Source: Candidatus Latescibacterota bacterium (lineage in GTDB: Bacteria; Latescibacterota; UBA2968). From it: a stretch of DNA of 64,000 nucleotides. The notes under the pieces are model-generated. The model worked only from the letters and a program-made list of their open reading frames with translations, searched no databases and was not told where the DNA came from. Positions 48,555 to 64,000 of the stretch are shown in pieces; position 1 is the stretch's first letter; every line of letters starts with the position of its first letter. The DNA is taken from NCBI GenBank assembly GCA_965207885.1, contig OZ242311.1, positions 384,001 through 448,000 on the forward strand, written 5' to 3'. Made by a program: the position numbers and the translations under genes.

Positions 48555-49670
48555 TCACATCGACTCTTTGATAAAGGATTTTAACTCAGGTGTAATGTTC
48601 AAGAACACGGTTTCTTGGATGGGTGTTTTGGATTGATAGGAGATTACGAATCTGTACTCTCTTTGGCTGGCAAACTGGGTTCTCTTCAAGAAGAAAATAG
48701 CAGAGTTCGCTTCGACCATAGAAAGCTTCTCGAACATGGGTTCCTTTGGCTCGTCACTGTAGATGACCGGCCCATGGAAGACTTGGATAACCCCTTTGAG
48801 TGGCGGTCTCGCAGACTTGAGTTTTTCTCTATAAAGGGAATCTAATTCTGGATATTCCCTGAAGAGGTTATCTGTTTTGAAGAAGTCCTCGTCTGAAACA
48901 TCAACGACTTGTCTTGCGAATTCGATTCCTAGATGTTTTGCGAATTTTGCAGGATTAAGGATGACCGAGGCAGCGTCATACCCTTGGGGCATTTCAGATC
49001 CTTGTAGGGCTGTACAGTAGATGAATGAGTCGCTCTGTACCTCGTATGTAGTCTCTATTTTTCCAAGGTGCAGGTCGGGAGGTTCTACGAAAGAGATTCC
49101 ATGCCTCGTGAAAAACTCATTGAAGAACTCGTTGAAGTATTCTACGAAATTTGGAAAGACTTTGATTGGTCCGTCATTTATGTTTCCTATAACTTCCATT
49201 TCCATTAAGCGAGGGTCGCATAGAGGTGTGGATAAATTGTTTATAGGAATGTTATGTCTCGTGTAGAACTCCTCAAGTGTTGATTTTACCTTGAAGGTTC
49301 CCTCCCAAGAGTCTCCTATTCCTTCGAGCTCTTGGAAGTTTTTTCGATAGTGGTGGAGAGTTCCTAGCTTAAGAGATCTTCCATTGTGTGGAGCATATTT
49401 ACTTTCTGAGTATTTTATCAGACTATTGGGCGGTTTATGTAGAGTTTTCCGGTTTAGAAACTGGGATGAGTAATCTAAGGGGGCGGCGACGACGAGCAGG
49501 TGACGATTAACCAAGACCAGAGCTTCTAATCTTTTTTGTCCTGGGTACAGTTTCTCCCTTACGAAATCCAGAGGTTCAGTGGGAAGTTCAAATACATCTG
49601 GAAGAAGTTCAAGTATCTCCATGACGTCGTACGTTTTTTGGGCTTGGGTCTGGGGATTTTTTTGATGCAT
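48555..49670 (-). CDS. Hypothetical protein (371 aa), AT-rich, at the island edge
   Basis: Long ORF; LGTLHHYRK..IGD..EG and FLKRTQFASQREYRFVI motifs. Confidence 0.75.
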   Translation of the reverse strand: MHQKNPQTQAQKTYDVMEILELLPDVFELPTEPLDFVREKLYPGQKRLEALVLVNRHLLVVAAPLDYSSQFLNRKTLHKPPNSLIKYSESKYAPHNGRSLKLGTLHHYRKNFQELEGIGDSWEGTFKVKSTLEEFYTRHNIPINNLSTPLCDPRLMEMEVIGNINDGPIKVFPNFVEYFNEFFNEFFTRHGISFVEPPDLHLGKIETTYEVQSDSFIYCTALQGSEMPQGYDAASVILNPAKFAKHLGIEFARQVVDVSDEDFFKTDNLFREYPELDSLYREKLKSARPPLKGVIQVFHGPVIYSDEPKEPMFEKLSMVEANSAIFFLKRTQFASQREYRFVISYQSKTPIQETVFLNITPELKSFIKESM

Positions 49671-49692: not shown

Positions 49693-50061
49693 CTACTTGG
49701 TCGCTAAACTCTGGCTTTGCAAACCTGGTACGTTTTGAAGTTCGGCGTCATTTGTCACCAGAACGGCCTGATGACAAATAGCGGTGGCGGCAATAATTGC
49801 ATCCGGTAACTTGAGTCCCGATTCTCGTCGCAAGCGAATAGCTTCTTTCTTTATATCTTGGTCTATACCGTAAATAGCCAATTTGGCAAGTGTGTCACGG
49901 ATTAAGGTTTCTTCTGTTGAAGTTAATTTCGAAAAAGAAAGTAATTCTATTTCAGTAATTATTGAACATATAATTTCGCCACGAGGCAACAAGTCTGCCA
50001 GACGGTCATTGAAGCGCAGAATGAAAATGTTGGTATCTATCACAAAACGTTCAGAGTTCAT
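49693..50061 (-). CDS. vapC: VapC (PIN domain) toxin
   Basis: FVIDTNIFI, ITEIEL, LKLPDAIIAATA, LVTND; ATGA overlap with the antitoxin. Confidence 0.92.
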   Translation of the reverse strand: MNSERFVIDTNIFILRFNDRLADLLPRGEIICSIITEIELLSFSKLTSTEETLIRDTLAKLAIYGIDQDIKKEAIRLRRESGLKLPDAIIAATAICHQAVLVTNDAELQNVPGLQSQSLATK

Positions 50062-50303
50062 TTCTCCCAACCCCGATCCCATTCAGCCCGAAGCTTTCGC
50101 TGAAACGCCACCGGGTCATCAATGTCTCGAAACGCTTGAATTTTGCCATCAAGATCCGATAGGACATCTGCACCTTCTGTTTTTCTTTGTTCGTCTTCCT
50201 GCAGGTAAACGGCAACACGAGCCTTTCGACCAAATGCCTCGCGAAAGTCAGTAGGAAGTTTGCCGTCTTTGGCAATGACGATTTCTTTTTCAATCAATTT
50301 CAT
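50058..50303 (-). CDS. Cognate VapB-type antitoxin
   Basis: Small ORF directly upstream of vapC; DPVAFQRKLRAEW tail typical of PIN antitoxins. Confidence 0.8.
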   Translation of the reverse strand: MKLIEKEIVIAKDGKLPTDFREAFGRKARVAVYLQEDEQRKTEGADVLSDLDGKIQAFRDIDDPVAFQRKLRAEWDRGWEK

Positions 50304-50383: not shown

Positions 50384-53300
50384 TCAAGCGGCACTTTCGT
50401 AATATGGCGATGGTAATTTGGGATAGGCGCGGTAGATGTGGCGGAATACGTCTTCGGTTTTTGTTTTTATGTCCTTTTCCGTGTATTTGTGAGGCAGGCC
50501 AGTTTCGTCGCTGAAGAGAAAGTCATAGATGGATGTCCGTACGGCGTCTCGGGTCGCTTCTTTTTCACACCATTGGTGGACGCGCAGATTGCTGGCTTTT
50601 AGTTTTTTTAAGAGACTGACGGCCACTTTTTTTATTTGTGTGATTTCGTTTGCGTTCAGATTGGGTTTTTTCAAGAGGTCGAAAATGGCAAGGGATTCTT
50701 CGTCGAGGCCCTCGCGAACAGCCCGGGTCTCTTCTTCATCCAATGCCTGCACCAGTTTGAGTAATGCCTCGAAGGTGCGCTCTATTGTTATCTGGTCTTT
50801 TTCGCGGTTGTACGCTGCTACGATTGCTTCGTAGTGGTGCTGGAAGTCCGTGCGTAATGGGTTTTGCTGCAGTAGGCGTTGCAATTTTTGTTCTACTGCT
50901 TGTCTGAGGTTTTGGACGGTGGTGTTTTTTTCCCGGATACGCACGAATTCTCGCTTCAGACGCTCGAAGTCTATCTGGCTGATGTCGTAAAGGCGCCGAT
51001 CTTCATCAGGATGCGGATTTGCAGGTACATCACTGACTGTGGGTTCAATGGCCGCATCTACTATCCGCTGTAATTCCATTAGAATGTCTGAGATGTCGGC
51101 CTGATTGCGGTCTTGCTGGAGGCTTTTGTACACGATGTCAATGGCGTCGCGGTCTTTGCGATATGTGTGGATGTTCTGGACGTTGACACAGGCTTTGTAT
51201 TTTTTGAATACTTCGCGGCACATGACTTCGAAGCGTTTGCGGGTTTCGTCGTTTTCGTTGACGGCTTCTTTGCAGGCTACGATCGCTGCGTTGCGCTGGA
51301 AGCCCGTTTTTTCAATGATGTCGTCCAGTGGTGCGTTGCGTTTGTCGAGGAAGTCTCGCACCAGGGCGATGGCTTCGGCGAGGTCTGATAGGAGTTCTTC
51401 GTCGGGTTTTGCGGGGTCGGTCGGTGTGCTATCTCCATCCGTTTGCGTGCCAGCGAAGGTTGCGAGTGCCTGGCGCAGGTGGACGAGGACGCCGCAGTAA
51501 TCTACGATCAGGCCGTTGTTTTTGTTTTCGTTTACGCGGTTGGCGCGGGCAATGGCCTGCATGAGGGTGTGGGCTTTGAGTGGTTTGTCGAGGTAGAGCG
51601 TTGATAGGCACGGGACATCGAAACCCGTTAGCCACATGGCGCAGACAATGGCGATGCGGAATGGGTGTTCCTCATCTTTGAAGGCTTCGTCCAAGTCCAT
51701 GCGTTGCTTGTTGCGGTACTGCGGCTTGTTCCTCATGGACTCGGGCAAGTCCATGCCTTCTTTGATGAGCCTGCGGTGCTGGATGATGTCCAGTTCCCAT
51801 TTGTTGAATTTTTCGATTTCGCCCTGTTCTTCGCTGATTACGACTGCTGCGCGGGTCTCGCGCATCCATTCGATCTTCTGATGCAGGTATGTTTTCTCTT
51901 CTTCATCCGTTGTCCGCGATAGCCTTGTTTCCAATTTTTGGATGTGTTCGTGCCAGTAGAACTCAATCAATTTGTGCATTCGCACACAGGTTATTTTGTC
52001 GATGCAGACCAGCATGGCTTTGCCGGTTTCCCAGGCGGTTGAGTAGTGTCGCGTGAAGTCCCGCGCCAGTTGGTCGAGCCGTTTGCCCGCGGTGATGATG
52101 TGGTAGGCGCGTTTGAGTTCTCGTTCGAGGTGCTGTTCCTCGTCGATGTCGCTGATTTCGGCCTCTTCCAATTTTTCGGCGATTTTTTCGTTCAGATCAT
52201 CAATTGCTACGCCGAGTTTGTCGCCGCGCGCGTCGTAGTAGAGGGGGAGCGTGGCGTTGTCTTCTACTGCACGCTGGAAGTCGTAGGTGGAGACGTAGTC
52301 GCCGAAGACGCGGCGTGTGATCTGGTCGTCTTTGAACAGGGGTGTGCCCGTGAAGCCCATGTAGGATGCGTTGGGCAGGGCGGCGCGCATGTTGGCTGCT
52401 AATTCGCCGTATTGGGTGCGGTGCGCTTCGTCGGTGATGACGATGATGTCGTCGCGCTGGGTGTAGCCTTTTTTGGGATCTATGTCCTCCTGGTTGAATT
52501 TCTGGATGAGGGAGAAGATGTGCGATTTGTGTTCTGTCAATAGCTGGTTCAGGTGTGGCCCGTCTGTTGCGCGACAAGGGTCTCGGTCGTTTACAACGCC
52601 GCAGCCAGCGAAGGTTTTGTAGATTTGCGTGTCCAAGTCTGTGCGGTCGGTGAGGATGAGGAAGGTGAAGTTGCCACCGAGTTTGCGGTGTACTTTGCGG
52701 GTGAAGAGTACCATGGAGTAGCTTTTGCCTGCTCCCTGTGTGTGCCAGAAGACGCCGAGTTTGCCCTGGCGTGCTTTGCGGTCGCGCACGGCATCAATGG
52801 CGCGGTTCACGCCGAGGAACTGGTGGTTGCGGGCGAGGATTTTCTTTGTTTCGCCGGATGTTTCGTCAAAGAGGATGAAGTTTTCTATGATGTCCATGAA
52901 GTCGCGTTTGTTGCAGACGCCCTTGAGGAGGGTTTCCATATCGACGACGCCGGGTTCTTCTTCGGACAGGCGTTTCCATTCGTGGAAGTGATCCCACTCG
53001 CTGGTGATAGAGCCGAGTTTTGCTTTTTCGCCGTTGCCAAACATGACGATGGCGTTGTGGTGGAAGATGTGGGGGATGGTGTCGTGGTAGTCCGAGTAGT
53101 TGCCGTTGTACGCGGCTTTGAGATCTCGGTGGATGTTTTTGCATTCGATGAAGAGGAGGGGCAGGCCGTTGACGAAGCCGATGATGTCTGCCCGTCTGCG
53201 GTAGAGGTCGCCCTTTATCCACAATTCGCGCACGCAGAGGAAGTGGTTGTTTTCGGGGGTTTCAAAATCGAAGATTCGGAGGCGTTCCCGCGTCTGCTCG

Positions 53301-53638
53301 CCGTTGGCGTTGCGGAATGTGACGGGTACGCCGTTGCGGATGAAATCGTACTTTTCGCGGTTGGTGGCGACGATGCTCTGCGAAGCAGTGGTGGATGTGA
53401 TTTTCCGGATTGCGTCGTTGTAGGCGTCTTCGGGTAGGCCGGGATTAAGAGTTCGCAGTGCGGTGAGCAGATAGCGTGTGAGCACTACTTCGCGGTCGGA
53501 GGTGCGACCAAGCAGGCTATCCTGTCCGAAGTCCTCGCTGTTATAGGCATAGACAGATTCCCAGCCGAGTTGCTGTTCGAGATACTCGGCTGTGGTCTGC
53601 TGAACGAGGGTGTCTTCAGTGTAAGGGGTTGGGTTCAT
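50384..53638 (-). CDS. hsdR: Type I restriction enzyme R subunit
   Basis: RRADIIGFVNGLPLLFIECK nuclease motif, WHTQGAGKS, DEAH, FTGTP, MWLTGFD.P, QAIARANR. Confidence 0.97.
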   Translation of the reverse strand: MNPTPYTEDTLVQQTTAEYLEQQLGWESVYAYNSEDFGQDSLLGRTSDREVVLTRYLLTALRTLNPGLPEDAYNDAIRKITSTTASQSIVATNREKYDFIRNGVPVTFRNANGEQTRERLRIFDFETPENNHFLCVRELWIKGDLYRRRADIIGFVNGLPLLFIECKNIHRDLKAAYNGNYSDYHDTIPHIFHHNAIVMFGNGEKAKLGSITSEWDHFHEWKRLSEEEPGVVDMETLLKGVCNKRDFMDIIENFILFDETSGETKKILARNHQFLGVNRAIDAVRDRKARQGKLGVFWHTQGAGKSYSMVLFTRKVHRKLGGNFTFLILTDRTDLDTQIYKTFAGCGVVNDRDPCRATDGPHLNQLLTEHKSHIFSLIQKFNQEDIDPKKGYTQRDDIIVITDEAHRTQYGELAANMRAALPNASYMGFTGTPLFKDDQITRRVFGDYVSTYDFQRAVEDNATLPLYYDARGDKLGVAIDDLNEKIAEKLEEAEISDIDEEQHLERELKRAYHIITAGKRLDQLARDFTRHYSTAWETGKAMLVCIDKITCVRMHKLIEFYWHEHIQKLETRLSRTTDEEEKTYLHQKIEWMRETRAAVVISEEQGEIEKFNKWELDIIQHRRLIKEGMDLPESMRNKPQYRNKQRMDLDEAFKDEEHPFRIAIVCAMWLTGFDVPCLSTLYLDKPLKAHTLMQAIARANRVNENKNNGLIVDYCGVLVHLRQALATFAGTQTDGDSTPTDPAKPDEELLSDLAEAIALVRDFLDKRNAPLDDIIEKTGFQRNAAIVACKEAVNENDETRKRFEVMCREVFKKYKACVNVQNIHTYRKDRDAIDIVYKSLQQDRNQADISDILMELQRIVDAAIEPTVSDVPANPHPDEDRRLYDISQIDFERLKREFVRIREKNTTVQNLRQAVEQKLQRLLQQNPLRTDFQHHYEAIVAAYNREKDQITIERTFEALLKLVQALDEEETRAVREGLDEESLAIFDLLKKPNLNANEITQIKKVAVSLLKKLKASNLRVHQWCEKEATRDAVRTSIYDFLFSDETGLPHKYTEKDIKTKTEDVFRHIYRAYPKLPSPYYESAA

Positions 53639-55395
53639 TTGGGTGGTCGATCAAAATAAAAACCCAACAGACTTTTAGAGGGATCTTCGTCGGTGAGGGT
53701 CAGCCGAACATGCTTATCGAAGTTAAAGCCATCGCTAAAGTCATCTCGCGGAACCATATCGGAATTTAGAGTACAAATGTACTGTACATTATTTGCACTT
53801 GATACCTTGCTCGCATGCTCAAATGCAAGTGCTCGTTGCCTGGAGTCAACACCGTCATAAAGACCACTGTCATGAATCAAGAAATTGAGTCTATCATTCT
53901 GTTTTGACATGATTTGTAATAGCATCAAATCGAAGCAGAAAATTTTCATCTTCTCAATGCCTTCGCTACCACTTTTGTCTATCTCGACATCGTACTTGAA
54001 CCCTGTTTCATCAATATTAATCACCAAGCGCCCGGGTGCCTCGTAAAGTGCCTGAGAGTTGTCGTTGAAAAGACGGAGTGGAAGGCTCCAAATATCTCTA
54101 CGTTCTTCGTGATCTTGCTCGGCAATCTTAGTCAATTCAGCCTTCGCTATATTTATATTGCGTTTCCGCGTGGTTCTATCCTTTATTTCTTCAAGCCAAG
54201 TAAGTTTCTGTTCTAAATTGCTGCGTATTTCAATGATGCGTTCCTGGAGTTTAGCCAGTTCTTGCAGTGCTCCGTGCGTTTCAAGAATTCTAAGCAAATC
54301 AGCCCTCTCATCAGTTAGTCGTCTAATTTCATCGTTTTGGACCCTGATTTTACGTTCTATGCGCCTGATTTCCGTTTCGAGAAAGACTCGCCTATTCTCG
54401 ATAATTTTCGAATGAAACTCTTTGGCTTCGGTAAGAGTACGACGAACCGAGTCAGAAAAAATCACACCAGTTTCTTCGTAGATATTGTCAATGGCTGTGT
54501 CAGAAGGGGGTGTCTCTGCTTCTACTGACTCTCTGTACCGAGACAAACGTCTTTGATCGACAATGTTCTTGTTGGTCAAATTGTGAATGGTTTCAGTGAT
54601 CTTATCAGCTTCGTTCTGAATTGTTTCGTACTGTGGGTGTACTTTGAATCCTTCTAAAGCATCTGATTCACGTTTGAGTTGACTTTCCAATTGAACGCAT
54701 TCCGCCTCTAACTCGCCAACTGAACCCCTTGCGCCTTCCATAGCACCGGACCTAATCGCTTCATCAATTGCCTTAATGCCCTTTTCTTGATCTTTCAATT
54801 CTTGCCATTTAGACGCATTCTCCCAGTTCATTTCAAGCAAAAGCGCGATGTGAAGTTGCCTGTCCCATGTCGCTTGGTGACGGGTATGACTGAATGGATC
54901 TATGTAAGCGGCGGTGCCGCGTCTTATGAAATATGAGATCAGACTACGGAAAGAAGGCCTGTGCCTGGTGGCATAGTCAGAGTGCAAGCCAAATAAAGCC
55001 CACCCCAAGAGTGCCCGCCAGCGGTCTAATTTGAACCTACCTCCTCTGAGGAGATCGAAACTATCAGGTTGTTCAATCCAACCAGTTGTCGGGCCTTCTA
55101 TATATAGCCAGTTCGGACTTTCAATAGCGCGGGTCACTTTCACACGGTTACCCTCAAGTGTAATTTCCAATGTAAATTCCCAATCTTGCAATGGATCTAT
55201 AGAGAGGCCCTGCCCCTTGCGAACGTTGGAGCCCAAACAAAAGTCAATAATGTCAATTAGAGTAGATTTACCCAGACCGTTTCGCGTGTCCTTTTGAGTA
55301 GATTCCTCAGTGCGGTCTGCTAAAATGACATTCAGTCCCGATGCAAATTCCACTGTATGAAATGAAGATTGGTTAGCAGTAATTCGATGAATCAT
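53635..55395 (-). CDS. lmuB: SMC-like ABC ATPase (DUF2326) of an ABC-3C/Lamassu system
   Basis: Walker A RNGLGKST, coiled coil, signature-like SGSEG, FLIHDS..DGVD, YICTLN. Confidence 0.88.
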   Translation of the reverse strand: MIHRITANQSSFHTVEFASGLNVILADRTEESTQKDTRNGLGKSTLIDIIDFCLGSNVRKGQGLSIDPLQDWEFTLEITLEGNRVKVTRAIESPNWLYIEGPTTGWIEQPDSFDLLRGGRFKLDRWRALLGWALFGLHSDYATRHRPSFRSLISYFIRRGTAAYIDPFSHTRHQATWDRQLHIALLLEMNWENASKWQELKDQEKGIKAIDEAIRSGAMEGARGSVGELEAECVQLESQLKRESDALEGFKVHPQYETIQNEADKITETIHNLTNKNIVDQRRLSRYRESVEAETPPSDTAIDNIYEETGVIFSDSVRRTLTEAKEFHSKIIENRRVFLETEIRRIERKIRVQNDEIRRLTDERADLLRILETHGALQELAKLQERIIEIRSNLEQKLTWLEEIKDRTTRKRNINIAKAELTKIAEQDHEERRDIWSLPLRLFNDNSQALYEAPGRLVINIDETGFKYDVEIDKSGSEGIEKMKIFCFDLMLLQIMSKQNDRLNFLIHDSGLYDGVDSRQRALAFEHASKVSSANNVQYICTLNSDMVPRDDFSDGFNFDKHVRLTLTDEDPSKSLLGFYFDRPPK

Positions 55396-55619
55396 TGCTT
55401 CACCCTCACAATCAGACTGTTTTCTAGACTTATAGCACCGACGATGTGAAGCATGTCAAGTGCCAGCACAAACCGTTCAAAGGTGCCTATCGCGTCTTCC
55501 TCTCGAACGGTCTCCCACAGGCTGGTCACCGTCTGTGGTTGGTCAATCTCTTTGAGCAGGATGGCACCAACACCGATTAGAGCCTGGTCTTGGGAAATAT
55601 GCTTTGACGGAAGGATCAT
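55392..55619 (-). CDS. lmuC: ABC-3C middle component (Lamassu small subunit)
   Basis: 75 aa, MILPSKH...GA.LL...TV..LW...F..ALD.L..G; 4-nt overlaps with both neighbours. Confidence 0.82.
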   Translation of the reverse strand: MILPSKHISQDQALIGVGAILLKEIDQPQTVTSLWETVREEDAIGTFERFVLALDMLHIVGAISLENSLIVRVKQ

Positions 55620-56377
55620 CTCTCAAACACCTCGCAGGTCTCAAACAGGTAAACCAGTACCGCTAATCCGGCGGACCGCTTGGCTTGCTCCACGAAGCCT
55701 CGCTGTGCAAATCTACACATTAAATCGAAAAGAACGTCTCCCGAATGCCCGTCTTGCCTCAACCGATAGTACTCTTGTAGAAATCCCACCTTCAAGCGTT
55801 CTGGAAAATCTTGATCCGTCTGCGCCACACTTTCAATAAACGCTCGCACCTCACGCGAAATACTGAGGCCCATTGTAATGATCATTCGAGAGCCGTTTCC
55901 CAATGCGTTTTTATTTATTTTATTTTCAGGCGCGATCACCGAAAAGTCATTGTCAGGGGCAGTCTGTTGTAGATTAATTTGCATGATCCACAGGGTGGCT
56001 TCTTCCAATTCTGGGAATCCAATATCTACGAATGCATCGGCTATTGCATCACGGACCGTTTGTTCGTGTTCACTCTTGATCTTGTGGAGGCGTTCTACGG
56101 GATAGTCGTTCTCACCTTGCGGCATCGCGTCAATTATGGTGTGGCAGGTTCCGCACAGATAGATGAGATTGTTATAATGGTCTCTATTCTTAGGGGGCAT
56201 ATTTTTATCATAACGAGCTGATCCAGGATTTTTACCAGCGATATGTGCTGCTTCTCCTACGTTGATAGGATCACCGCTTTCACTGTCTGGTGACAAATTC
56301 TGTCCACAACCGGGCAAAGCACATATGTCTCCACTTCGGTAGGCCAAGAGGATTTTAGTTCGGTTGGATACGCTCAC
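55616..56377 (-). CDS. lmuA: Lamassu effector: HNH endonuclease + ABC-3C C-terminal domain
   Basis: CALPGC...GEAAHI...NLIYLCGTCH..ID HNH motif; KINKNAL and AVLVYLFETCEVFER C-terminal domain. Confidence 0.85.
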   Translation of the reverse strand: MSVSNRTKILLAYRSGDICALPGCGQNLSPDSESGDPINVGEAAHIAGKNPGSARYDKNMPPKNRDHYNNLIYLCGTCHTIIDAMPQGENDYPVERLHKIKSEHEQTVRDAIADAFVDIGFPELEEATLWIMQINLQQTAPDNDFSVIAPENKINKNALGNGSRMIITMGLSISREVRAFIESVAQTDQDFPERLKVGFLQEYYRLRQDGHSGDVLFDLMCRFAQRGFVEQAKRSAGLAVLVYLFETCEVFER

Positions 56378-56559
56378 ACCGCCACCTCCCCATTCATCAA
56401 CTGCAGTAGGAGCACGTCGCGGGTCTGGGTGAGTTGTTCATTCGACTGATGGAGTTTCTCAATTTGAAGAACAATCGGAATGATCTGCTCCATAAATATA
56501 TCAGCGGTCCTGTCATATACCTGCAAAAACGTAACTCCCTGAAAGTCTAATTGCGACAA
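56374..56559 (-). pseudogene. hsdS: Orphan 3' fragment of an hsdS gene (conserved C-terminal helix)
   Basis: QIEKL...LTQTRDVLLLQLMNGEVAV* is homologous to LTQARDLLLPRLMSGEMAV* at 63775-63840; no upstream TRD. Confidence 0.8.
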
Positions 56560-56688
56560 AAAATAGCTCCTGAACCTAAAGAACTAATTTTTTAGAGGAT
56601 AAAAAAGGAAATTCTGTTGGCCTGCGAGTGACCGAATGGCTGCGTTCATCAAGTGTGGACAAGAGACAGTGCGGACCATAGTTTGCCC

Positions 56689-59600
56689 TTAAATTTGGTA
56701 AGCGGAATCACTCCGACGGCGCGGGATAGATTGTAGCTGTGGCTCGCTCCCGCCGAGATTTGCCAACCGTCGGGCACTTTCTCGTTCAATCAGTTTTTGG
56801 TTCCGAAGCATTCTCATTTTCGCGTCATGTTCGGCAACATTTACTTCCGCTTCTCGATCATATCCCTCTGCTAATTTTCGGAGTGTAACAGCAAAGCGGT
56901 GATAGCCTGCATTTTCAACGTCTTCGGCTTTTTGTCTGTATTTTTCGGCAAGCTCTTGTTCTGGTTTTCCCGTTGGGTCAACTGTGTGAACCCCGCGAGA
57001 GTTGTACATTCCAGAACGGAAACTATTCCTCATTTCTTCTTCATCCGTCGCATTGAGCGCAGAGGCGACTGTTCGGTGTATCCACAACCCTTCTGGATCA
57101 GGTGGCGCATGAATGAGAACATTTCCTATATGCATAAGAGCGGCCTCAAGATGTCCGGATTCATTACACGCTTCTTTTGTTTTCTTAAGCCACTTCTCGA
57201 ATTGGTCAGGTAAAAATTGACCATCTGATTGCTTACCCGGCGGAGTTTTCCATTTATCAAGGAGTTCGTATGCGTTATCAGCAATGGCTTTATCCTGTTC
57301 GCTAAGTTCTTTTGGAGATTTCATTTCATTTTTTGATCGATAGATAAGGCGTATTAGTTCGCAGAAAAAATCCGGGTCAGAAGATAGGCGATTTTCTAAT
57401 GATTTCGGTGATGTATCAGCATAATAAGGTTCATTCAGCAATTTCAGGTAGGCCCATTCAATTTGAAAAAGAGCATCAGGATCGGTGTCTGGGTCGTCCT
57501 GTAAAGCCTTTATGATTTCGATGATGCTATGCAGATCCACCACATGTGAAGGTTCTTTAGAAGAAATCGCAGCCATGAGAGCTTTTACACTTCGGGTTTT
57601 GTCCAATGGCTGTTTACTGTGTATCATTTTATGCAGACAGGCGATAGCCGCATGGGGTCTGTCATACTCTATCAGTTTGTCTATGGCAATGCTGAGGTCG
57701 CCATCAGTGTGATCTTGGTATGGGTTTGCACTGGTTTTGTTCCAGTACCCCTTTTCGGACTCGCCCAGCCAATCTGTTGCGCGATGCCAGGTCTCCTTTG
57801 TAAAGGGTAGATAGGATAGGAACTGACCTGTTTGTGCTGCTGACCAGTTTGAGGTGTTAAAGCTATCAACCCATTCCCATCCATTGACATTTTGGCGACA
57901 ACTGACATAAGCACTTGTAAGCAGCGCGAGTTTGGTGTTATCTGTTTCCAGCAATGCAGGAAGGATGTGTTTGTCAGTTTCCTCCTGTGCTATAGTACCC
58001 AGAGAACGTCCAACAAACCAGGGTGCCTCAACACTTTCGGCGAATTGAAATACCATATCCATCCCACCATCAGCCAGAATCTCTTTTATCGCTTGCTGAC
58101 GGCGTTGATCGAGTTTTTGGCGGTGTTGATCAAGTTTTTCCTTTTGCTGTGGGTCTCCCCAGGTTCCTTCATAGAGAGCCAAATCATTGTGACCAAATAA
58201 TCTGCGATGAAGATGAAATGGATTTTGAGGCGCGAGTTTTGCGGCAACATCCTCGATTTTGGAAAGGATTTTATCGCTTAAAGCCCATTCTGCGTCAGAA
58301 AAGCGTCTGTGTTTTGAGGCAAGCTTAGTTAGTTGAGACCAGATTTTTAGACGCTGATCTTCAGATTTGCCGCATATCTCTTCTGATGATAGATACTCGA
58401 GCAATTTGTCAAAAGAAGGCTTTGGTAAGTTATCAAGATCACCAATCAACTCGGTTAATTTATCAATATCATTGCTTGCCATCGAAACCGCTATTTCAGC
58501 ATAAGAGGTAATTTGCTTCCAGTACTCCTCTTGAATAACACGATCTTCCCAATCATCGGGAATGGTATTTCGCCACGCAGGTTTGTGAGTGCCGGAGGAC
58601 ATCTGATGCTGATTTGGCAACAGATTGATCAATAGGTTCCATGCCACATCTGGGACTGTATTTATCAGCGTTTTTACAGCAACTTCGCGCTTCTCTATGG
58701 GTGCAATAGTCTGCGGATGCCACGGGAGTATAATTTCTGTCAGCGAATTGGCTGGGCGGTTCGCCCAATTCCCACCGGGATCATGTTCCGCAAGATCACC
58801 GAGAATTACGCACACTCGGACGAGATACTCAGCATCCCAGGCAAGGGTTTCCAATGCCCAGAGTAGGCCAACGAGGTAATTTCTACCCCCCACACCTCCG
58901 CGTTCCTGTGAAAACAATTCGTCAAATGGGCAAGGAGATTGGTCCAACGCATTTTCTACCGCGTTCAAAAAATCATTTGGGGCTGCTTCTGCCAGCACAG
59001 GGAGAAGATCATTTAGACTACCCCACAATACCCAATCAGCATTCTTAAGAATTTCGCGAACAACACGACTGGCTGTGTCTTTTGGCTTCCAACCTTGATG
59101 TTGTGGCGAAAAGTTCTTCAAAGCATCGGGATTAGTGCTGAGAAGTGCCAGCGTTTCAGCTAATCCTTTCCGAAGACCGTTTGAGTATTTTGGTACCTTG
59201 TCGTAAATATTGGCGGCATAGCGTTCATCAGCAGGTAAGTCAAACTGAGGATTGCGCTCGGACAATACTGTAACCGCACACTGTTTCAGGACTTTCAGCG
59301 TGTCATCAAAAACACGTCCGCCTAATGCCTGCCACATTCCTTTTCGATCAATGACTTGCCATCTCCCGTTTATAAACGTCACAGGGCTTATGGCTTGTTG
59401 TAACATCTCCCTCAGTTTGGGAATCCATTTTGTGTAATCCTCTTCATTGACAAGCTGACGCACAATTTCTAGATCGGCTTCGTTTAGCTCATTCCACGCG
59501 CCAAGAAGGTTGGCAATCGCCAGGTCAGAAGCGTATTCGTGCTGATTCCAGTCTGAATGGGTTTGTTGTTCGTCAGAAGACTGCAATCGAATTGTCTCAA

Positions 59601-60033
59601 TTTCTCGCAAACTGAGCGCGCCGAGGGACTCGCCATTGCGTCCATACCAATGTCCTTTCCAGGCAGTTGGAATGCCTTGCATGGCGGGCGGAATTTTGAA
59701 CATGACAACGCGGCCACCTGGGTGATTGAGCACATAGATTTCATCGAATGTGAGGTTATCAGTTTCATTGGCAATTTCCTGTTTCAAGCTGTCAAGGTGC
59801 GCTGGATTTTCGCGGAACTGACTGCCGCAAACCGAATGATCATTTTTTACACCGAATATCAACCAACCACACGCTTGCTTTTTCAAGTTGGCTTCGTTGG
59901 ATAGCGCAGAGAAATACTTGCCCAACTTCTCGAAGTCATACTGATTTTGAGCTTCTTTGAACTCGAGCCATTCTGTCTCGTGCGGAAGTTCACACAGACG
60001 GTCGAGTTCCTGACGAAGTTCAGATTGGTTCAT
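56689..60033 (-). CDS. Schlafen/AlbA_2 domain fused to a ~900-aa helical domain with a VapB-like C-terminal tail
   Basis: ETEWLEFKE, YFSALSNEAN, GWLIFGV at the N-terminus; likely ATG at 60033 after GGGAGA; terminal LIERESARRLANLGGSEPQL. Confidence 0.8.
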   Translation of the reverse strand: MNQSELRQELDRLCELPHETEWLEFKEAQNQYDFEKLGKYFSALSNEANLKKQACGWLIFGVKNDHSVCGSQFRENPAHLDSLKQEIANETDNLTFDEIYVLNHPGGRVVMFKIPPAMQGIPTAWKGHWYGRNGESLGALSLREIETIRLQSSDEQQTHSDWNQHEYASDLAIANLLGAWNELNEADLEIVRQLVNEEDYTKWIPKLREMLQQAISPVTFINGRWQVIDRKGMWQALGGRVFDDTLKVLKQCAVTVLSERNPQFDLPADERYAANIYDKVPKYSNGLRKGLAETLALLSTNPDALKNFSPQHQGWKPKDTASRVVREILKNADWVLWGSLNDLLPVLAEAAPNDFLNAVENALDQSPCPFDELFSQERGGVGGRNYLVGLLWALETLAWDAEYLVRVCVILGDLAEHDPGGNWANRPANSLTEIILPWHPQTIAPIEKREVAVKTLINTVPDVAWNLLINLLPNQHQMSSGTHKPAWRNTIPDDWEDRVIQEEYWKQITSYAEIAVSMASNDIDKLTELIGDLDNLPKPSFDKLLEYLSSEEICGKSEDQRLKIWSQLTKLASKHRRFSDAEWALSDKILSKIEDVAAKLAPQNPFHLHRRLFGHNDLALYEGTWGDPQQKEKLDQHRQKLDQRRQQAIKEILADGGMDMVFQFAESVEAPWFVGRSLGTIAQEETDKHILPALLETDNTKLALLTSAYVSCRQNVNGWEWVDSFNTSNWSAAQTGQFLSYLPFTKETWHRATDWLGESEKGYWNKTSANPYQDHTDGDLSIAIDKLIEYDRPHAAIACLHKMIHSKQPLDKTRSVKALMAAISSKEPSHVVDLHSIIEIIKALQDDPDTDPDALFQIEWAYLKLLNEPYYADTSPKSLENRLSSDPDFFCELIRLIYRSKNEMKSPKELSEQDKAIADNAYELLDKWKTPPGKQSDGQFLPDQFEKWLKKTKEACNESGHLEAALMHIGNVLIHAPPDPEGLWIHRTVASALNATDEEEMRNSFRSGMYNSRGVHTVDPTGKPEQELAEKYRQKAEDVENAGYHRFAVTLRKLAEGYDREAEVNVAEHDAKMRMLRNQKLIERESARRLANLGGSEPQLQSIPRRRSDSAYQI

Positions 60034-60190
60034 ACTGAAATCTCCCATTCTGATTCTACCATAAGATTGGGTATGCATCAGACAGGCGGCAGTTTCGAAT
60101 ATATTACTTCAAATTTTCCACCGTGTTCTTGTTGCAACTTCGCTTCTTTTATATTTTGGTCTCTTGGCAATGTTTCCGCACAGTCCAAAC

Positions 60191-61147
60191 TTAGACAGAG
60201 ACCCGGTCAAATGCCTCTGTAAAAGTAATGCTCCCATTCTGCATTTCACGTCTGATGTTAAGAATATCTGATGGAGTCGGCAGGCCATCAATTTGCAATT
60301 TGCAAGAAATATTAAGACGTTCAAAAAGAGAGTTGATTTCCTTGACGATATGATCTCTTAATACAGCCAGTGCCCAGTGAAAATTAACCAATCTATGGAA
60401 AACGAAAAACTCTGTTGATCGTTTTTCGGACAAATCTCTTCGATTCCACCCCCATTTTTTGGTAACTTGTCCGCAGTATATATCAGCCATTCTTACATAC
60501 TCTTGAAAATCAAAATTACTGTCTTGCAAGCCTTTTGCTAAATCTTGACTCCAAAAATTTGGAGGCAAACTTTCATATTGTCCCAGGTTCTTTATCATAG
60601 CTTTATATCCCTTTCGTCCACCTAACATCGGGGGCATCTCGAAGTACCAAATGCGCTTTGATGGGACCAAGACAAAGTTCTTTTCCCACAGGTCTCGGTC
60701 CCTTTTGGGAACCAGTTGCAGAAAGTAGCCGGGAAGACGTAATAATCTTCTTGATGTGAAACCATAGAGATGGGCAATATTGTTGTCATCAAATATTATT
60801 TCGTGTACTGAGCATCCTTCATGGGAAAGGTGTCTTACTATATTTTCAATAACATCACAGACTACTCTATTTAGATCATGTCGTCTGATTAGATCATGTT
60901 GGTCATTCGGATTATATCCATATTGCATTTCTCTAATAAGTTGTCTTGCCTTTTCACACTCCCTCTCATCTCCATCCATGCTAACAGAAAACGCTTTCTG
61001 TTTCGTTGTATGACCTCCAATTGGCATTATTGCCAAATATATATCTTCGGTGAACATATGTATGTTCAGGTTGTTATCTGTTTCGTTTGAAAGGCTGGGA
61101 AAATGTCTGGCGACTGTCGGCTGTACTATGTCGTGATACCCCATCAT
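60191..61147 (-). CDS. Hypothetical protein (318 aa)
   Basis: ORF with ATGA overlap to the upstream 845-aa gene; no recognisable motif. Confidence 0.8.
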   Translation of the reverse strand: MMGYHDIVQPTVARHFPSLSNETDNNLNIHMFTEDIYLAIMPIGGHTTKQKAFSVSMDGDERECEKARQLIREMQYGYNPNDQHDLIRRHDLNRVVCDVIENIVRHLSHEGCSVHEIIFDDNNIAHLYGFTSRRLLRLPGYFLQLVPKRDRDLWEKNFVLVPSKRIWYFEMPPMLGGRKGYKAMIKNLGQYESLPPNFWSQDLAKGLQDSNFDFQEYVRMADIYCGQVTKKWGWNRRDLSEKRSTEFFVFHRLVNFHWALAVLRDHIVKEINSLFERLNISCKLQIDGLPTPSDILNIRREMQNGSITFTEAFDRVSV

Positions 61148-63681
61148 TCTTCACCTCCATCATTACGAAGAATGTCTTGATATCTTCGTTTCGCCCTTTG
61201 CAAAGCATTGGGGAAATGCTGTCGGTTACGTCCAAAATCTAAACTTTCTCCATCCTCGCAATTCCGCAGATAGAAGTTGATGAAGACGTCAATTCCGTCA
61301 TAACGACTTAGATGACGTTCACCGACAAATATGCGGACTAATACATCTTCATGATCAATTTCTATATCCGACGTTATTGCTTCAATTCCATCAACCTCAC
61401 GGCGAGGAACATTCCTTAACACATTCATTATTTTTTGTTTCCAACTGGTGCGTAGAACTGAACGATGTGGTATTATTCCAAATGCACTTTCTGTAAAGGC
61501 AACTGCTCCAGCCAATAGAGGTAATGGCGATTGCTCACGTTCTCGGTTTAAGTATTTGTCCCAGGCCTGTGTCACTGTCTCCCATAACAACACATTTTCA
61601 TGGTAATCAGCCATCAATTTTGCATACCCGCTGATATCTATAAGATCCAATAATGGTGCCGCAGCTATCTTAAAATCCTGTTGAGCATGCCAATCTGTAA
61701 TTGATGTTGTTGGTTTGAGTTTATCAAACTTCAATAGAGCACCATGTAAATACGGTTTAAAGACATTTTTTAGTAAGGCGGTGTCATTCTTTAATAGAGC
61801 ATCAAATGCAACTTCGCCTGAAGTGTGAAGAAACTGCCCTGCATAATCTGGATAATTCTCCGGACGGTTAATAAGAGCAAGTAATATATTTTGTTTTGAC
61901 ATCTGTGACAGCAATTCATTTTGTCTGGCATCGCTCTTGGAACGTAGTTCTTCAAGGTCTAACTGGGACCAGGGCAAACCATCTATGTATCGCTCACTGG
62001 TCAGTTCATCCCAGACCTTCGGCCAGATATTATTGAGTTGATCGCTTACCTTATGCCAGTACTCCCACTCCCGACTCATTATGGCCGCTGCCAGCCATGG
62101 TCGACTACAGTCAGTTGCTTTTTTAATACTGGTTTTAAATAAATCTGCACTTTTGATAATCAATGTCTCGGCACTGGCAACAAATTGCTTTGCCTCTACT
62201 TGGCGCACAAGCTCTGTAAGATACCAAAGAGGTGAAACTACATGTCCTTCTACTGTTTTTTCAAACACGAGCCGCGGTTTCAACCACTCAACTCGTGAAA
62301 GACAATGTTTTGAAAATCCCTGACGGTAGATACTGGCCTCTTTGGTCCAGCGTACTGAGGAGACCATGTTTTTTATAGTCTGAGAGCTAATACTCTCCAT
62401 AGTTTCTCGGTAGGTCAAAGCTACAGATATAGTAAGAGCAGATAATCGTTCTACCAGTCCTAATTTCTCCAGAGTTCCTTGTAAATTGCTATCGGTTTGT
62501 TTAGTGAATTGGTCTAAAACTGTTTCCATCAAATTCTCTACCAAAACAAAGGCTCTATCCACGCTCCCTTCACGCGCAAGTTTTTTTATGTAAACCCCTG
62601 TATAATCAAATAGACCAAATAGATCGGTATAACGTCCGTTCACTAAATTGACCTCAATACATCTCTTGACAATTGGAATGCACCTTTCCTCAATCCATTC
62701 ATTATTGGTTGTTATTTCTGGCTGAATCATTGTGCTTGTCTGGTGAGCAAGGTCCACAGCCGTATCGCCTGTTCGATACCAGTCTCGGTGTTGGTATTGC
62801 TGCTGATACCAAACACTTTCAGTAGGTATTTTACGTTTCGCATCTTCATAAACAATTAAAAACTTCAGAACATTTTTGGATAATTCTATGAAAGGTTTGC
62901 CATTTAAATGTGGCTCTTTCGATGTGATGTCTGACAGTGTTTTAAGTGTGTCCAGTGTTGCTGAAGCCTTTTTGTGGGCATGATTTTGGAATGATTGATC
63001 CTGCCATCTGAATCCGCCTATAACTACCATGCTCAGCCAGCGATGAAGCTCCTTAAAGAGATGATGTGATAGCGCAGTGGGGTCAAAAAAATAGAAAGCC
63101 CGTTGCCCAAGTTTCACGAATGAAATAATCCCTATTCCTGCCAATATTGTTACCAGTGGTATCGCGAAATGCACTTTGGGAAATCCCATTTCACGGAAGG
63201 CAATTAAGATCAAGCCGAGAAATGTCAAAAAGGCGAGAAAGCCCATATAGACATTTCCAAATCTCTCATGTGCCAACAGATCTCTAATATTATTTGGTAC
63301 TCTCGCATATGTGGTGCTACCCACCATGCTAAGACCTGCATAATACAGACCGATGAAAACTCCTCCAATACCGCTGATCGTTGCCAACAACGTCACATAA
63401 TCACTATCGTCGGGAATTGCAATACCAATGCTCCCATAGTATGAGTATAAATAGGAGTCAATCGTTTGAATCAGTGCAGCAATCACAATACAGATTAATA
63501 GCAGCGCCCAGGTGATCCTGAAGAGGTGTCTAAATGATTGGTAATTAGCTCTCTCTTCATTAAGCCTGTATCGAACACTATATATACGTGCGCCCAACCA
63601 AAAAAAAATATTTCTCAGGATACTACGTAGTAACCAAAAGCCCCGTGATTGATATAGTTGTAAAAGGAATCTGTTCTTCAT
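61144..63681 (-). CDS. Hypothetical membrane protein (845 aa; N-terminal TM bundle, large soluble domain)
   Basis: About 4-5 hydrophobic helices in the first ~200 aa; AT-rich; no recognisable catalytic motif. Confidence 0.85.
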   Translation of the reverse strand: MKNRFLLQLYQSRGFWLLRSILRNIFFWLGARIYSVRYRLNEERANYQSFRHLFRITWALLLICIVIAALIQTIDSYLYSYYGSIGIAIPDDSDYVTLLATISGIGGVFIGLYYAGLSMVGSTTYARVPNNIRDLLAHERFGNVYMGFLAFLTFLGLILIAFREMGFPKVHFAIPLVTILAGIGIISFVKLGQRAFYFFDPTALSHHLFKELHRWLSMVVIGGFRWQDQSFQNHAHKKASATLDTLKTLSDITSKEPHLNGKPFIELSKNVLKFLIVYEDAKRKIPTESVWYQQQYQHRDWYRTGDTAVDLAHQTSTMIQPEITTNNEWIEERCIPIVKRCIEVNLVNGRYTDLFGLFDYTGVYIKKLAREGSVDRAFVLVENLMETVLDQFTKQTDSNLQGTLEKLGLVERLSALTISVALTYRETMESISSQTIKNMVSSVRWTKEASIYRQGFSKHCLSRVEWLKPRLVFEKTVEGHVVSPLWYLTELVRQVEAKQFVASAETLIIKSADLFKTSIKKATDCSRPWLAAAIMSREWEYWHKVSDQLNNIWPKVWDELTSERYIDGLPWSQLDLEELRSKSDARQNELLSQMSKQNILLALINRPENYPDYAGQFLHTSGEVAFDALLKNDTALLKNVFKPYLHGALLKFDKLKPTTSITDWHAQQDFKIAAAPLLDLIDISGYAKLMADYHENVLLWETVTQAWDKYLNREREQSPLPLLAGAVAFTESAFGIIPHRSVLRTSWKQKIMNVLRNVPRREVDGIEAITSDIEIDHEDVLVRIFVGERHLSRYDGIDVFINFYLRNCEDGESLDFGRNRQHFPNALQRAKRRYQDILRNDGGEE

Positions 63682-63774
63682 GATAAGTGAAGCTCACAAT
63701 AAGATGAGGTATGTATAATCCGATGCGTCGCCATTTAAGACAACAGGCGTGGCGTTCTTATTCTTGTTCGATGC

Positions 63775-64000
63775 TCAAACCGCCATCTCCCCACTCATCA
63801 ACCGCGGCAGAAGCAGGTCTCGGGCTTGGGTGAGTCTGCGTATTTCGGTAGAAAGTATGTCAATTTGTCGAAGGATCGGCGATATAATGCCTGTAAACTT
63901 GTCAATTAAACTGGTTTCAGGAACTACAAAAGGAATGAGCTTAAAGGTGTTTCGGATAATCGCATCGAAGATTGCGCCAACTGCTCGACTGCGAAATTGT
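63775..64000 (-). CDS. hsdS: Type I R-M specificity subunit, 3' end (truncated by the window)
   Basis: Manual translation: ...AVGAIFDAIIRNTFKLIPFVVPETSLIDKFTGIISPILRQIDIL...LTQARDLLLPRLMSGEMAV*. Confidence 0.9.
   Translation of the reverse strand, partial: QFRSRAVGAIFDAIIRNTFKLIPFVVPETSLIDKFTGIISPILRQIDILSTEIRRLTQARDLLLPRLMSGEMAV

Follow-up and report, generated by a model that had tools for sequence, protein, structure and literature searches.

A candidate two-gene defence module pairing a membrane protein with a protein of predicted phage portal fold, and an apparently separate Schlafen-headed gene, in the hsdS-hsdR slot of a Latescibacterota genome

The window analysed here, a stretch of 64,000 nucleotides (nt) from a Candidatus Latescibacterota bacterium (assembly GCA_965207885.1, contig OZ242311.1, positions 384,001 to 448,000), contains part of a type I restriction-modification (R-M) locus, in which three genes, designated A, B and C, lie between the intact hsdS gene and hsdR. 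The features of this interval, in the order in which they are read on the minus strand, are as follows.

63775..64000, minus strand: 3' part of the intact hsdS; the whole gene encodes 376 amino acids (aa) and extends to 64905, outside the window (best PADLOC match Specificity_I, E 1.3e-16)
61144..63681, minus strand: gene A, an inner-membrane protein of 845 aa with four predicted transmembrane (TM) helices
60191..61147, minus strand: gene B, a cytoplasmic protein of 318 aa with a predicted phage portal fold
60030..60050, minus strand: relic of an hsdS 3' end, immediately 5' of the start of C, from a junction DNA alignment with three relatives and locus L001
56689..60033, minus strand: gene C, 1114 aa; its reading frame is open upstream to 60078 (1129 aa)
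56374..56559, minus strand: second hsdS 3' tail, 61 aa, matched by the C-terminal ends only of PADLOC specificity-subunit models
53635..56377, minus strand: PDC-M68 ABC-three-component system, identified with Pfam and PADLOC, separate from A+B and from C
55616-56377, minus strand: HNH+CTD10 effector of the PDC-M68 system
55392-55619, minus strand: MC6 middle component of the PDC-M68 system
53635-55395, minus strand: DUF2326 ABC ATPase of the PDC-M68 system
50384..53638, minus strand: hsdR, which closes the cassette slot on its far side

The original prediction, made from the letters of the window, had described A, B and C as one candidate anti-phage cassette lying between two hsdS 3' ends. The three co-oriented open reading frames (ORFs), the intact hsdS end at 63775 and the second hsdS tail were all located where it had placed them. 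The region is indeed AT-richer, as it had proposed, with a G+C content of 0.40-0.42 across A+B and 0.44-0.47 across C, versus 0.511 for the genome. Moreover, four hydrophobic segments (within residues 53-191) agree with its reading of A as a membrane protein, and the Schlafen head attributed to C was recovered as PF04326, spanning residues 34-151 of the protein and 113 of the 118 profile positions (E 2.9e-12; 47.6 bits, cut-off 25.3). The absence of any named system also stood: A, B and C matched 0 families at E ≤ 0.01 in PADLOC 2.0, a library that dates from 2023 and covers systems up to then. Among the downstream neighbours, hsdR was correctly named, whereas the system called Lamassu is, judging from its profile matches, better filed as ABC-three-component PDC-M68, of an ABC-ATPase class related to Lamassu. 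Indeed, it scored E 1.5e-90 with PDC-M68A and E 1e-209 with PDC-M68B, versus E 2.7e-14 with the LmuB models of Lamassu; an MC6 component is present (Pfam, E 3e-16) and the effector carries CTD10.

Relatives were collected by scanning one genome per species, which yielded 39 loci containing B (numbered from L001), and A, B and C were placed in each of them by tblastn. An A homolog was found directly upstream of B in 38 of the 39 loci, the exception (L029) having just the C-terminal half of B. The two genes overlap by 4 nt in the window, from the stop of A to the start of B, and this overlap was seen again in 12 of the 39 loci, according to our ORF calls. C, in contrast, adjoins A+B in a single locus, L001, which is the closest relative (B 82% identical), and 37 of the 38 loci holding both A and B are without C. 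The loci belong to Latescibacteria, Poribacteria, Binatia, Acidobacteriota, Verrucomicrobia, Saccharibacteria, several proteobacterial classes and others. Among close relatives, B was present in 2 of 41 related genomes, its own genome included, and in 1 of the 20 other genomes of the genus.

We then compared, in 10 relatives of the genus, the 20-kb stretch upstream of hsdR, where A and B were both absent (0/10 each) and C was present in five. In all five C-bearing relatives, C begins on the hsdS stop, and a DNA alignment of three relatives places the hsdS stop across the C start. This overlap identifies the start of C as M16, at 60033, a start conserved in relatives that gives the length of about 1114 aa first proposed. 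Just before C, the window and L001 both retain the final ~17-21 nt of the hsdS end, and similarity farther upstream is weak. Because an hsdS relic precedes C here, and C sits directly on hsdS in relatives, the aligned DNA indicates that A+B, together with a new hsdS end on its upstream side, was inserted into an hsdS/C junction that already existed. Two of the five C-bearing relatives (L048 and L050) also have a second hsdS tail, followed by PDC-M68.

Overall, A+B and C are very probably separate units. The single three-gene module was thus not upheld, given the 37 of 38 A+B loci without C, the occurrence of C without A+B in five of ten relatives and the insertion at the junction; the co-occurrence expected of homologs was borne out for A with B (38/39) and failed for C (1/39), with R-M genes adjoining the pair in 10 of 37 loci. 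A+B is instead a self-contained, horizontally mobile two-gene module, conserved and scattered across phyla. In several loci, A or B was partial or was split into two to five tblastn pieces (fragmentary A in L015, L024, L025, L027 and L037; fragmentary B in L030, L036 and L037; partial in L029), which may reflect pseudogene decay or errors in metagenome-assembled genomes.

B was modelled with AlphaFold2 from 26 sequences, with a mean predicted local distance difference test (pLDDT) of 82 and a predicted template modelling score of 0.83. When this model was searched against the PDB with Foldseek, 24 matches reached E ≤ 1e-3; all those listed were portal proteins of phages or gene transfer agents (GTAs); PDB entry 8dgf (Avs4) was among them owing to its bound portal chain. 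The match covers residues ~15-308, nearly the entire chain, and extends to the arrangement of clip, stem and wing. As modelled, therefore, B has the phage portal fold, and the plain adaptor that had been proposed for the middle gene does not describe it. Its relatives are all unnamed: a word-indexed search found 104 of them, of about 309 aa, and a profile search found 1079 cluster representatives, the best 150 of which are all about 170-380 aa long. By sequence, B matched nothing in Pfam, PADLOC (both at E ≤ 0.01), NCBIfam or PHROGs, and its profile gave chance-level rows only against PDB sequences. Two peptide patterns did not find relatives of B in 2.9 million viral contigs. Moreover, no terminase, capsid or portal Pfam family was detected in 370 ORFs lying within 6 kb at the 39 loci (E ≤ 1e-6 to 1e-8), nor among the proteins of the window, so B would be a portal-fold protein outside any virion gene module.

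The N-terminal 52 residues of A include 10 K/R versus 2 D/E, and the loop at 72-94 carries none. From this charge bias and the positive-inside rule, we infer that the N-terminus and the C-terminal domain of ~650 aa are cytoplasmic. The AlphaFold2 model of A (pLDDT 83.7) is nearly all-helical and the ~650-aa domain forms a solenoid, whose matches in structure searches were limited to generic solenoids and designed repeats. No match was found in Pfam, PADLOC, NCBIfam or PHROGs, and the profile of A gave chance-level rows against PDB sequences. The ESM Atlas returned 'hypothetical protein' clusters only, for A as for the C-terminal part of C, one of these clusters having DUF2254 on 12% of its members. 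Several proteins of the T7-like internal virion core (ejectosome) appeared among the non-significant BFVD rows of the A model (E 0.04-0.08, probability ≤ 0.2); the helical core proteins of T7 stack on the portal, and we note this as a parallel, not as evidence.

Co-folding of A (residues 200-845) with B gave interaction prediction scores from aligned errors (ipSAE) of 0.63, 0.68 and 0.70, versus 0.01 for the best control. This mark was attained by 116 of 157 solved complexes and by 2 of 215 mismatched pairs, counts that apply only roughly here because our own alignments were used for A and B. At least 86% of contacts agreed between the runs, and the pLDDT of the partner was at least 77. The predicted interface comprises residues 467-487 and 565-567 of A and residues 219-251 and 303-310 of B. 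Residues 467-487 of A form the most conserved motif of its family, with E474 and W486 invariant, and the mean conservation of the A interface was 0.645 versus 0.476 elsewhere (rough permutation p 0.002). The strict synteny, the translational coupling and the co-folding prediction together make a physical complex of A and B likely.

C consists of the Schlafen/AlbA_2 head and an uncharacterised C-terminal domain of ~920 aa. Residues 182-1079 match phrog_18693 (E 2.8e-118), and the C-terminal part has at least 2286 relatives among 8000 candidates scored. The heads of the best 120 relatives are not uniform: 58 carry PF04326, 4 SIR2_2 and 1 TIR (TIR_2, E 1.5e-31), and 57 are without a named head; one of the SIR2 heads (protein P0209) matches the pAgo-associated SIR2 model (E 1e-138). 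In PADLOC and Pfam, nothing matched the large domain (PADLOC at E ≤ 0.01, and a second scan at E ≤ 0.001); for C as a whole, NCBIfam gave just a chance-level RlmH row (E 0.046), and there was no match to PDB sequences at E ≤ 1. By analogy, exchangeable heads on a constant, sensor-like body are the signature of single-protein defences. C is very probably a separate single-gene unit, and its head is a likely nucleic-acid-cleaving effector; eukaryotic members of the Schlafen family cleave tRNA. Its family is a large, unnamed one of head-swapping single-gene defence candidates with Schlafen, TIR or SIR2 heads.

The hsdS-hsdR slot of the 10 genus relatives holds OLD/AriA-like ATPase-nucleases in three (L043, L045 and L049), PDC-M03A in three and PDC-M03B in six (as HipA-like pairs), a Hachiman-like PDC-M23A/B helicase in one (L049), and PDC-M68 genes in two (tblastn). 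The recognisable occupants of the slot in relatives are all known or candidate defence cassettes, and the original description of type I R-M loci as hotspots for defence cassettes holds for this one, since the slots contain varied cassettes of this kind. Several slot ORFs of 129-556 aa in L043-L052 match nothing in PADLOC. Orthologs of hsdR, at 76-94% identity, are present in 14 of the 20 other genomes of the genus.

Several of the slot cassettes start on hsdS sequence, either an hsdS end or a second tail. In the window, the stop of the second tail overlaps the start of the next cassette, PDC-M68. This 61-aa tail is not a full HsdS with two target-recognition domains: its best match among PADLOC type I specificity models (E 2.5e-8) lies at profile positions 355-397 of 403, and it covers just the last ~45-60 profile positions. 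Its DNA is 74% identical to that of the intact hsdS tail over 107 nt, which argues for a relic of another hsdS allele and not for a fresh duplication. Three successive hsdS ends are therefore seen in the window, namely the intact gene, the ~20-nt relic and the 61-aa tail. Further tails occur in relatives (L048:12814-13002, L049:11376-11546 and L050:8534-8722), where an hsdS 3' end likewise stands before slot cassettes and the following gene often starts on the hsdS stop. This looks like stacking of cassettes by recombination within the conserved 3' coding end of hsdS, and the presence of an hsdS 3' end before every cassette would explain why defence genes accumulate in type I R-M operons. The locus would then offer a concrete mechanism for the stacking of defence cassettes behind hsdS 3' ends.

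The neighbours of A+B were scored from the ORFs closest to the pair, two on either side (134 ORFs in 37 testable loci). R-M or R-M-like genes border the pair in 10 of the 37 and belong to types I, II, IIG, III and Hma.

L001, L010, L015, L018, L030: type I R-M beside A+B
L002: type III methylase beside A+B
L006, L020: type IIG beside A+B
L007: HmaA upstream and HmaB downstream of A+B
L039: type II endonuclease fragment beside A+B

Four more of the 37 loci have other PADLOC matches (SoFic-like, PDC-S02 twice, and PDC-M05A). Integrase, transposase, recombinase or transfer genes were found within 6 kb in 14 of the 39 loci.

Several known systems resemble parts of this locus. To our knowledge, no role is known for portal proteins other than that of DNA gate in tailed phages, herpesviruses and gene transfer agents. 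B is predicted to share the fold of the portals of HK97, lambda, SPP1, T4 (gp20), G20c and RcGTA but shows no membership of these families at the sequence level; unlike them, it lies outside a head-morphogenesis module, was not found in the viral collections searched, and has a membrane protein, A, as its constant partner. Avs4 is a STAND NTPase that recognises the phage portal, an example of bacterial immunity directed at the portal and packaging stage. Whereas Avs4 senses a portal, B has the shape of one, and an NTPase is absent from both A and B.

For C, the closest positional likeness is PrrC, an anticodon nuclease encoded between hsdS and hsdR in the EcoprrI type I R-M locus. In relatives, C is found at this position, its start overlapping the hsdS stop upstream of hsdR, but C showed no sequence relation to any PADLOC model, and regulation of C by R-M is pure analogy. 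In architecture, C recalls single-protein defences that combine an enzymatic head with a large helical sensor, such as DSR2, which is reported to consist of a SIR2 head, a MID domain and an alpha-solenoid C-terminal domain (PMC11850899, PMC10981675). The C family follows the same logic, with interchangeable Schlafen/AlbA_2, SIR2 and TIR heads on its conserved ~920-aa domain. No PADLOC model, Dsr included if it is in the library, matched C, and for P0209 it is the pAgo-associated model that its SIR2 head matches.

San Juan (sjdA/sjdB) was considered as an identity for A+B. It is described as a two-gene, abortive-type defence in which SjdB has four predicted TM segments (PMC12366544), and A+B likewise comprises two genes, one for a four-TM protein, and no nuclease domain. 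By its authors' counts, SjdA and SjdB (514 and 1067 hits) are almost confined to Pseudomonadota, with none in Acidobacteriota, Verrucomicrobiota or Patescibacteria (PMC12366544), phyla in which A+B loci do occur. On these phylum counts, and not on sequence, we judge it unlikely that A+B is San Juan (PMC12366544).

Taken together, these results lead us to favour, with some confidence, the reading that A+B and C are two independent passengers, carried in a slot for defence cassettes between hsdS and hsdR. Both A+B and C are probably anti-phage; for the pair considered by itself, the balance tips only narrowly towards such a role. We propose that B could act as a portal mimic, tethered at the inner membrane through the conserved motif on the cytoplasmic solenoid of A. 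Late in infection, B would engage a component of head assembly or DNA packaging (terminase, portal partners or scaffold), and this engagement would either block packaging directly or turn A to a membrane-damaging, abortive state. This specific mechanism is offered tentatively, as one that is rather unlikely to be correct in its particulars. Also unlikely is a bolder form of it, in which B would be a domesticated phage portal forming a ring on the cytoplasmic face of A; this decoy packaging vertex would attract terminase-DNA or head-assembly partners and either drain packaging or open clustered four-TM bundles of A, leading to death of the infected cell. C, for its part, might be a nuclease-headed sensor that fires as a backup once restriction fails, as suggested by its translational coupling to hsdS in relatives, which parallels that of prrC in EcoprrI.

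If the decoy vertex is real, it would be the first immune system made from a viral portal, and B the first portal-fold protein acting outside any virus-like particle. If the pair is defensive, mimicry of a viral structural protein at the packaging stage would join the known strategies, and the pair would give access to how terminase and portal recognise each other. In the literature searched, no paper describing a portal-like protein in bacterial defence was found, and papers mentioning both portal-like proteins and defence did not deal with a bacterial portal homolog. We found no precedent for a conserved cellular gene pair of a portal-fold protein and a membrane protein.

A number of observations weigh against this interpretation. 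B has no sequence link to portals: it has no Pfam portal match at E ≤ 0.01, its profile aligned with lambda gpB, the sole template, at an hhalign probability of 0.1%, and no match at E ≤ 1 was obtained by tblastn among 50,697 phage records. A common fold, moreover, itself taken from a model, demonstrates by itself no function for B. The A-B complex is a matter of model confidence and not of measurement, obtained on our own alignments, and conservation on the B side of the interface does not significantly exceed that of the remainder of B (p 0.12). Structure searches revealed no recognisable enzymatic or pore domain in A. Position and distribution are the sole grounds from which the defence role is deduced. 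Among the 37 testable loci, 17 have no PADLOC match in the four nearest ORFs and six have generic matches only (UvrA, UvrD, kinase, ABC), while several loci (L012, L021, L028 and L032) look like housekeeping settings. Adjacency to R-M is an association and not a measured enrichment.

Four other explanations were weighed against that of two independent defence passengers. In the first, A+B would be a relic or a working part of a mobile element, a membrane-anchored portal-like channel that moves or excludes DNA, in superinfection exclusion at the inner membrane or in DNA export or import for an unrecognised element. Portals are DNA-translocation channels, and such a channel would agree with the fold of B, with its predicted seat on a membrane protein and with the recombination or transfer genes within 6 kb in 14 of the 39 loci. 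Just two genes are conserved, however, and their neighbours vary between loci; at the thresholds given above, the 370 neighbouring ORFs contained no family of terminases, capsids, relaxases or motor ATPases (FtsK-like or other), and relatives of B were found neither in the 2.9 million viral contigs, with the patterns used, nor in the 50,697 phage records. We consider this explanation improbable.

An accessory membrane complex serving some other, non-conflict physiology, and mobile only incidentally, would account for the 17 of 37 loci without a recognisable defence neighbour and for the lack of any recognisable effector-type domain in A or B. It accords poorly with a pair that is so patchy, found in 1 of 20 other genomes of its genus yet in many phyla, with the broken or fragmentary copies in several loci, and with a slot that, in relatives, is filled by defence cassettes wherever its occupants are recognisable, even if some slot ORFs match nothing; it seems to us quite improbable.

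That A+B is an accessory or guard of R-M, triggered by a phage anti-restriction protein or aiding the enzyme, is distinctly improbable. The pair does lie in or beside R-M or R-M-like operons in 10 of the 37 testable loci, at varied insertion points and in varied orientations: between hsdS and hsdR (the window, L001 and L010), between hsdM and hsdS (L015 and L030) and between HmaA and HmaB (L007). In the other 27, however, there is no R-M gene among the four nearest ORFs, and clustering in defence islands suffices to explain the adjacency; since the R-M types differ among loci, a specific R-M protein partner for A+B is unlikely.

Finally, a single system of membrane sensor (A), adaptor (B) and Schlafen RNase effector (C), to which the co-orientation and adjacency of the three genes in the window and L001 and their shared AT-richness would point, is very improbable and already largely refuted by synteny (C not beside A+B in 37 of 38 loci, C on hsdS without A+B in five of ten relatives, A+B splitting an older hsdS/C junction), the G+C content of A+B also differing from that of C and the C family being far larger than that of B in a like-for-like search (at least 2286 members scored versus 104).

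Some further observations concern the occurrence and surroundings of these genes. Pieces identical to A, B and C are present in a sponge metagenome of another study, and relatives at 90-99% identity in two further studies. One contig from an RNA library spans a 90-95% identical relative of C, and not A+B, which is no proof of transcription; A+B had no RNA cover in the sequencing runs searched. A scan for promoters and terminators was uninformative, since sites were rarer than in shuffled sequences.

In L007 (2987-20065), A+B lies between HmaA, a helicase with SNF2 and NOV_C (E 2e-167), and the DUF1156 methylase HmaB (E 2e-118), with an AAA_21 ATPase and a DUF499 protein farther on; the pair is thus inside an Hma-type system. 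In one Poribacteria genome (L018:38-7210), a 1092-aa TPR-PIN-GreABC protein is encoded upstream of A+B together with a C5 methylase and a HATPase protein resembling type II endonucleases, and hsdS, a HicB/DUF6575 protein, Uma2 and hsdR are found downstream, in a dense defence island.

Just downstream of hsdR in the window, two ORFs (48555-49670 and 49693-50082, both on the minus strand; local G+C content 0.42-0.44) match no Pfam, PADLOC or NCBIfam family, the first of them (371 aa) having two weak PHROG rows (E 1e-4 and 7e-3); these ORFs may be further cargo of the island. Outside the window, at 65436-72129 (L042:1436-8129), additional genes lie between hsdM and hsdS and encode a zeta-toxin-like P-loop protein (174 aa), a protein matching PDC-M45B (198 aa, E 1e-90) and a 170-aa protein without assignment, and a SoFic-like Fic protein of 327 aa is encoded upstream of hsdM. 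In the Binatia locus L010, the type I R-M genes are likewise accompanied by zeta-like and Fic genes.

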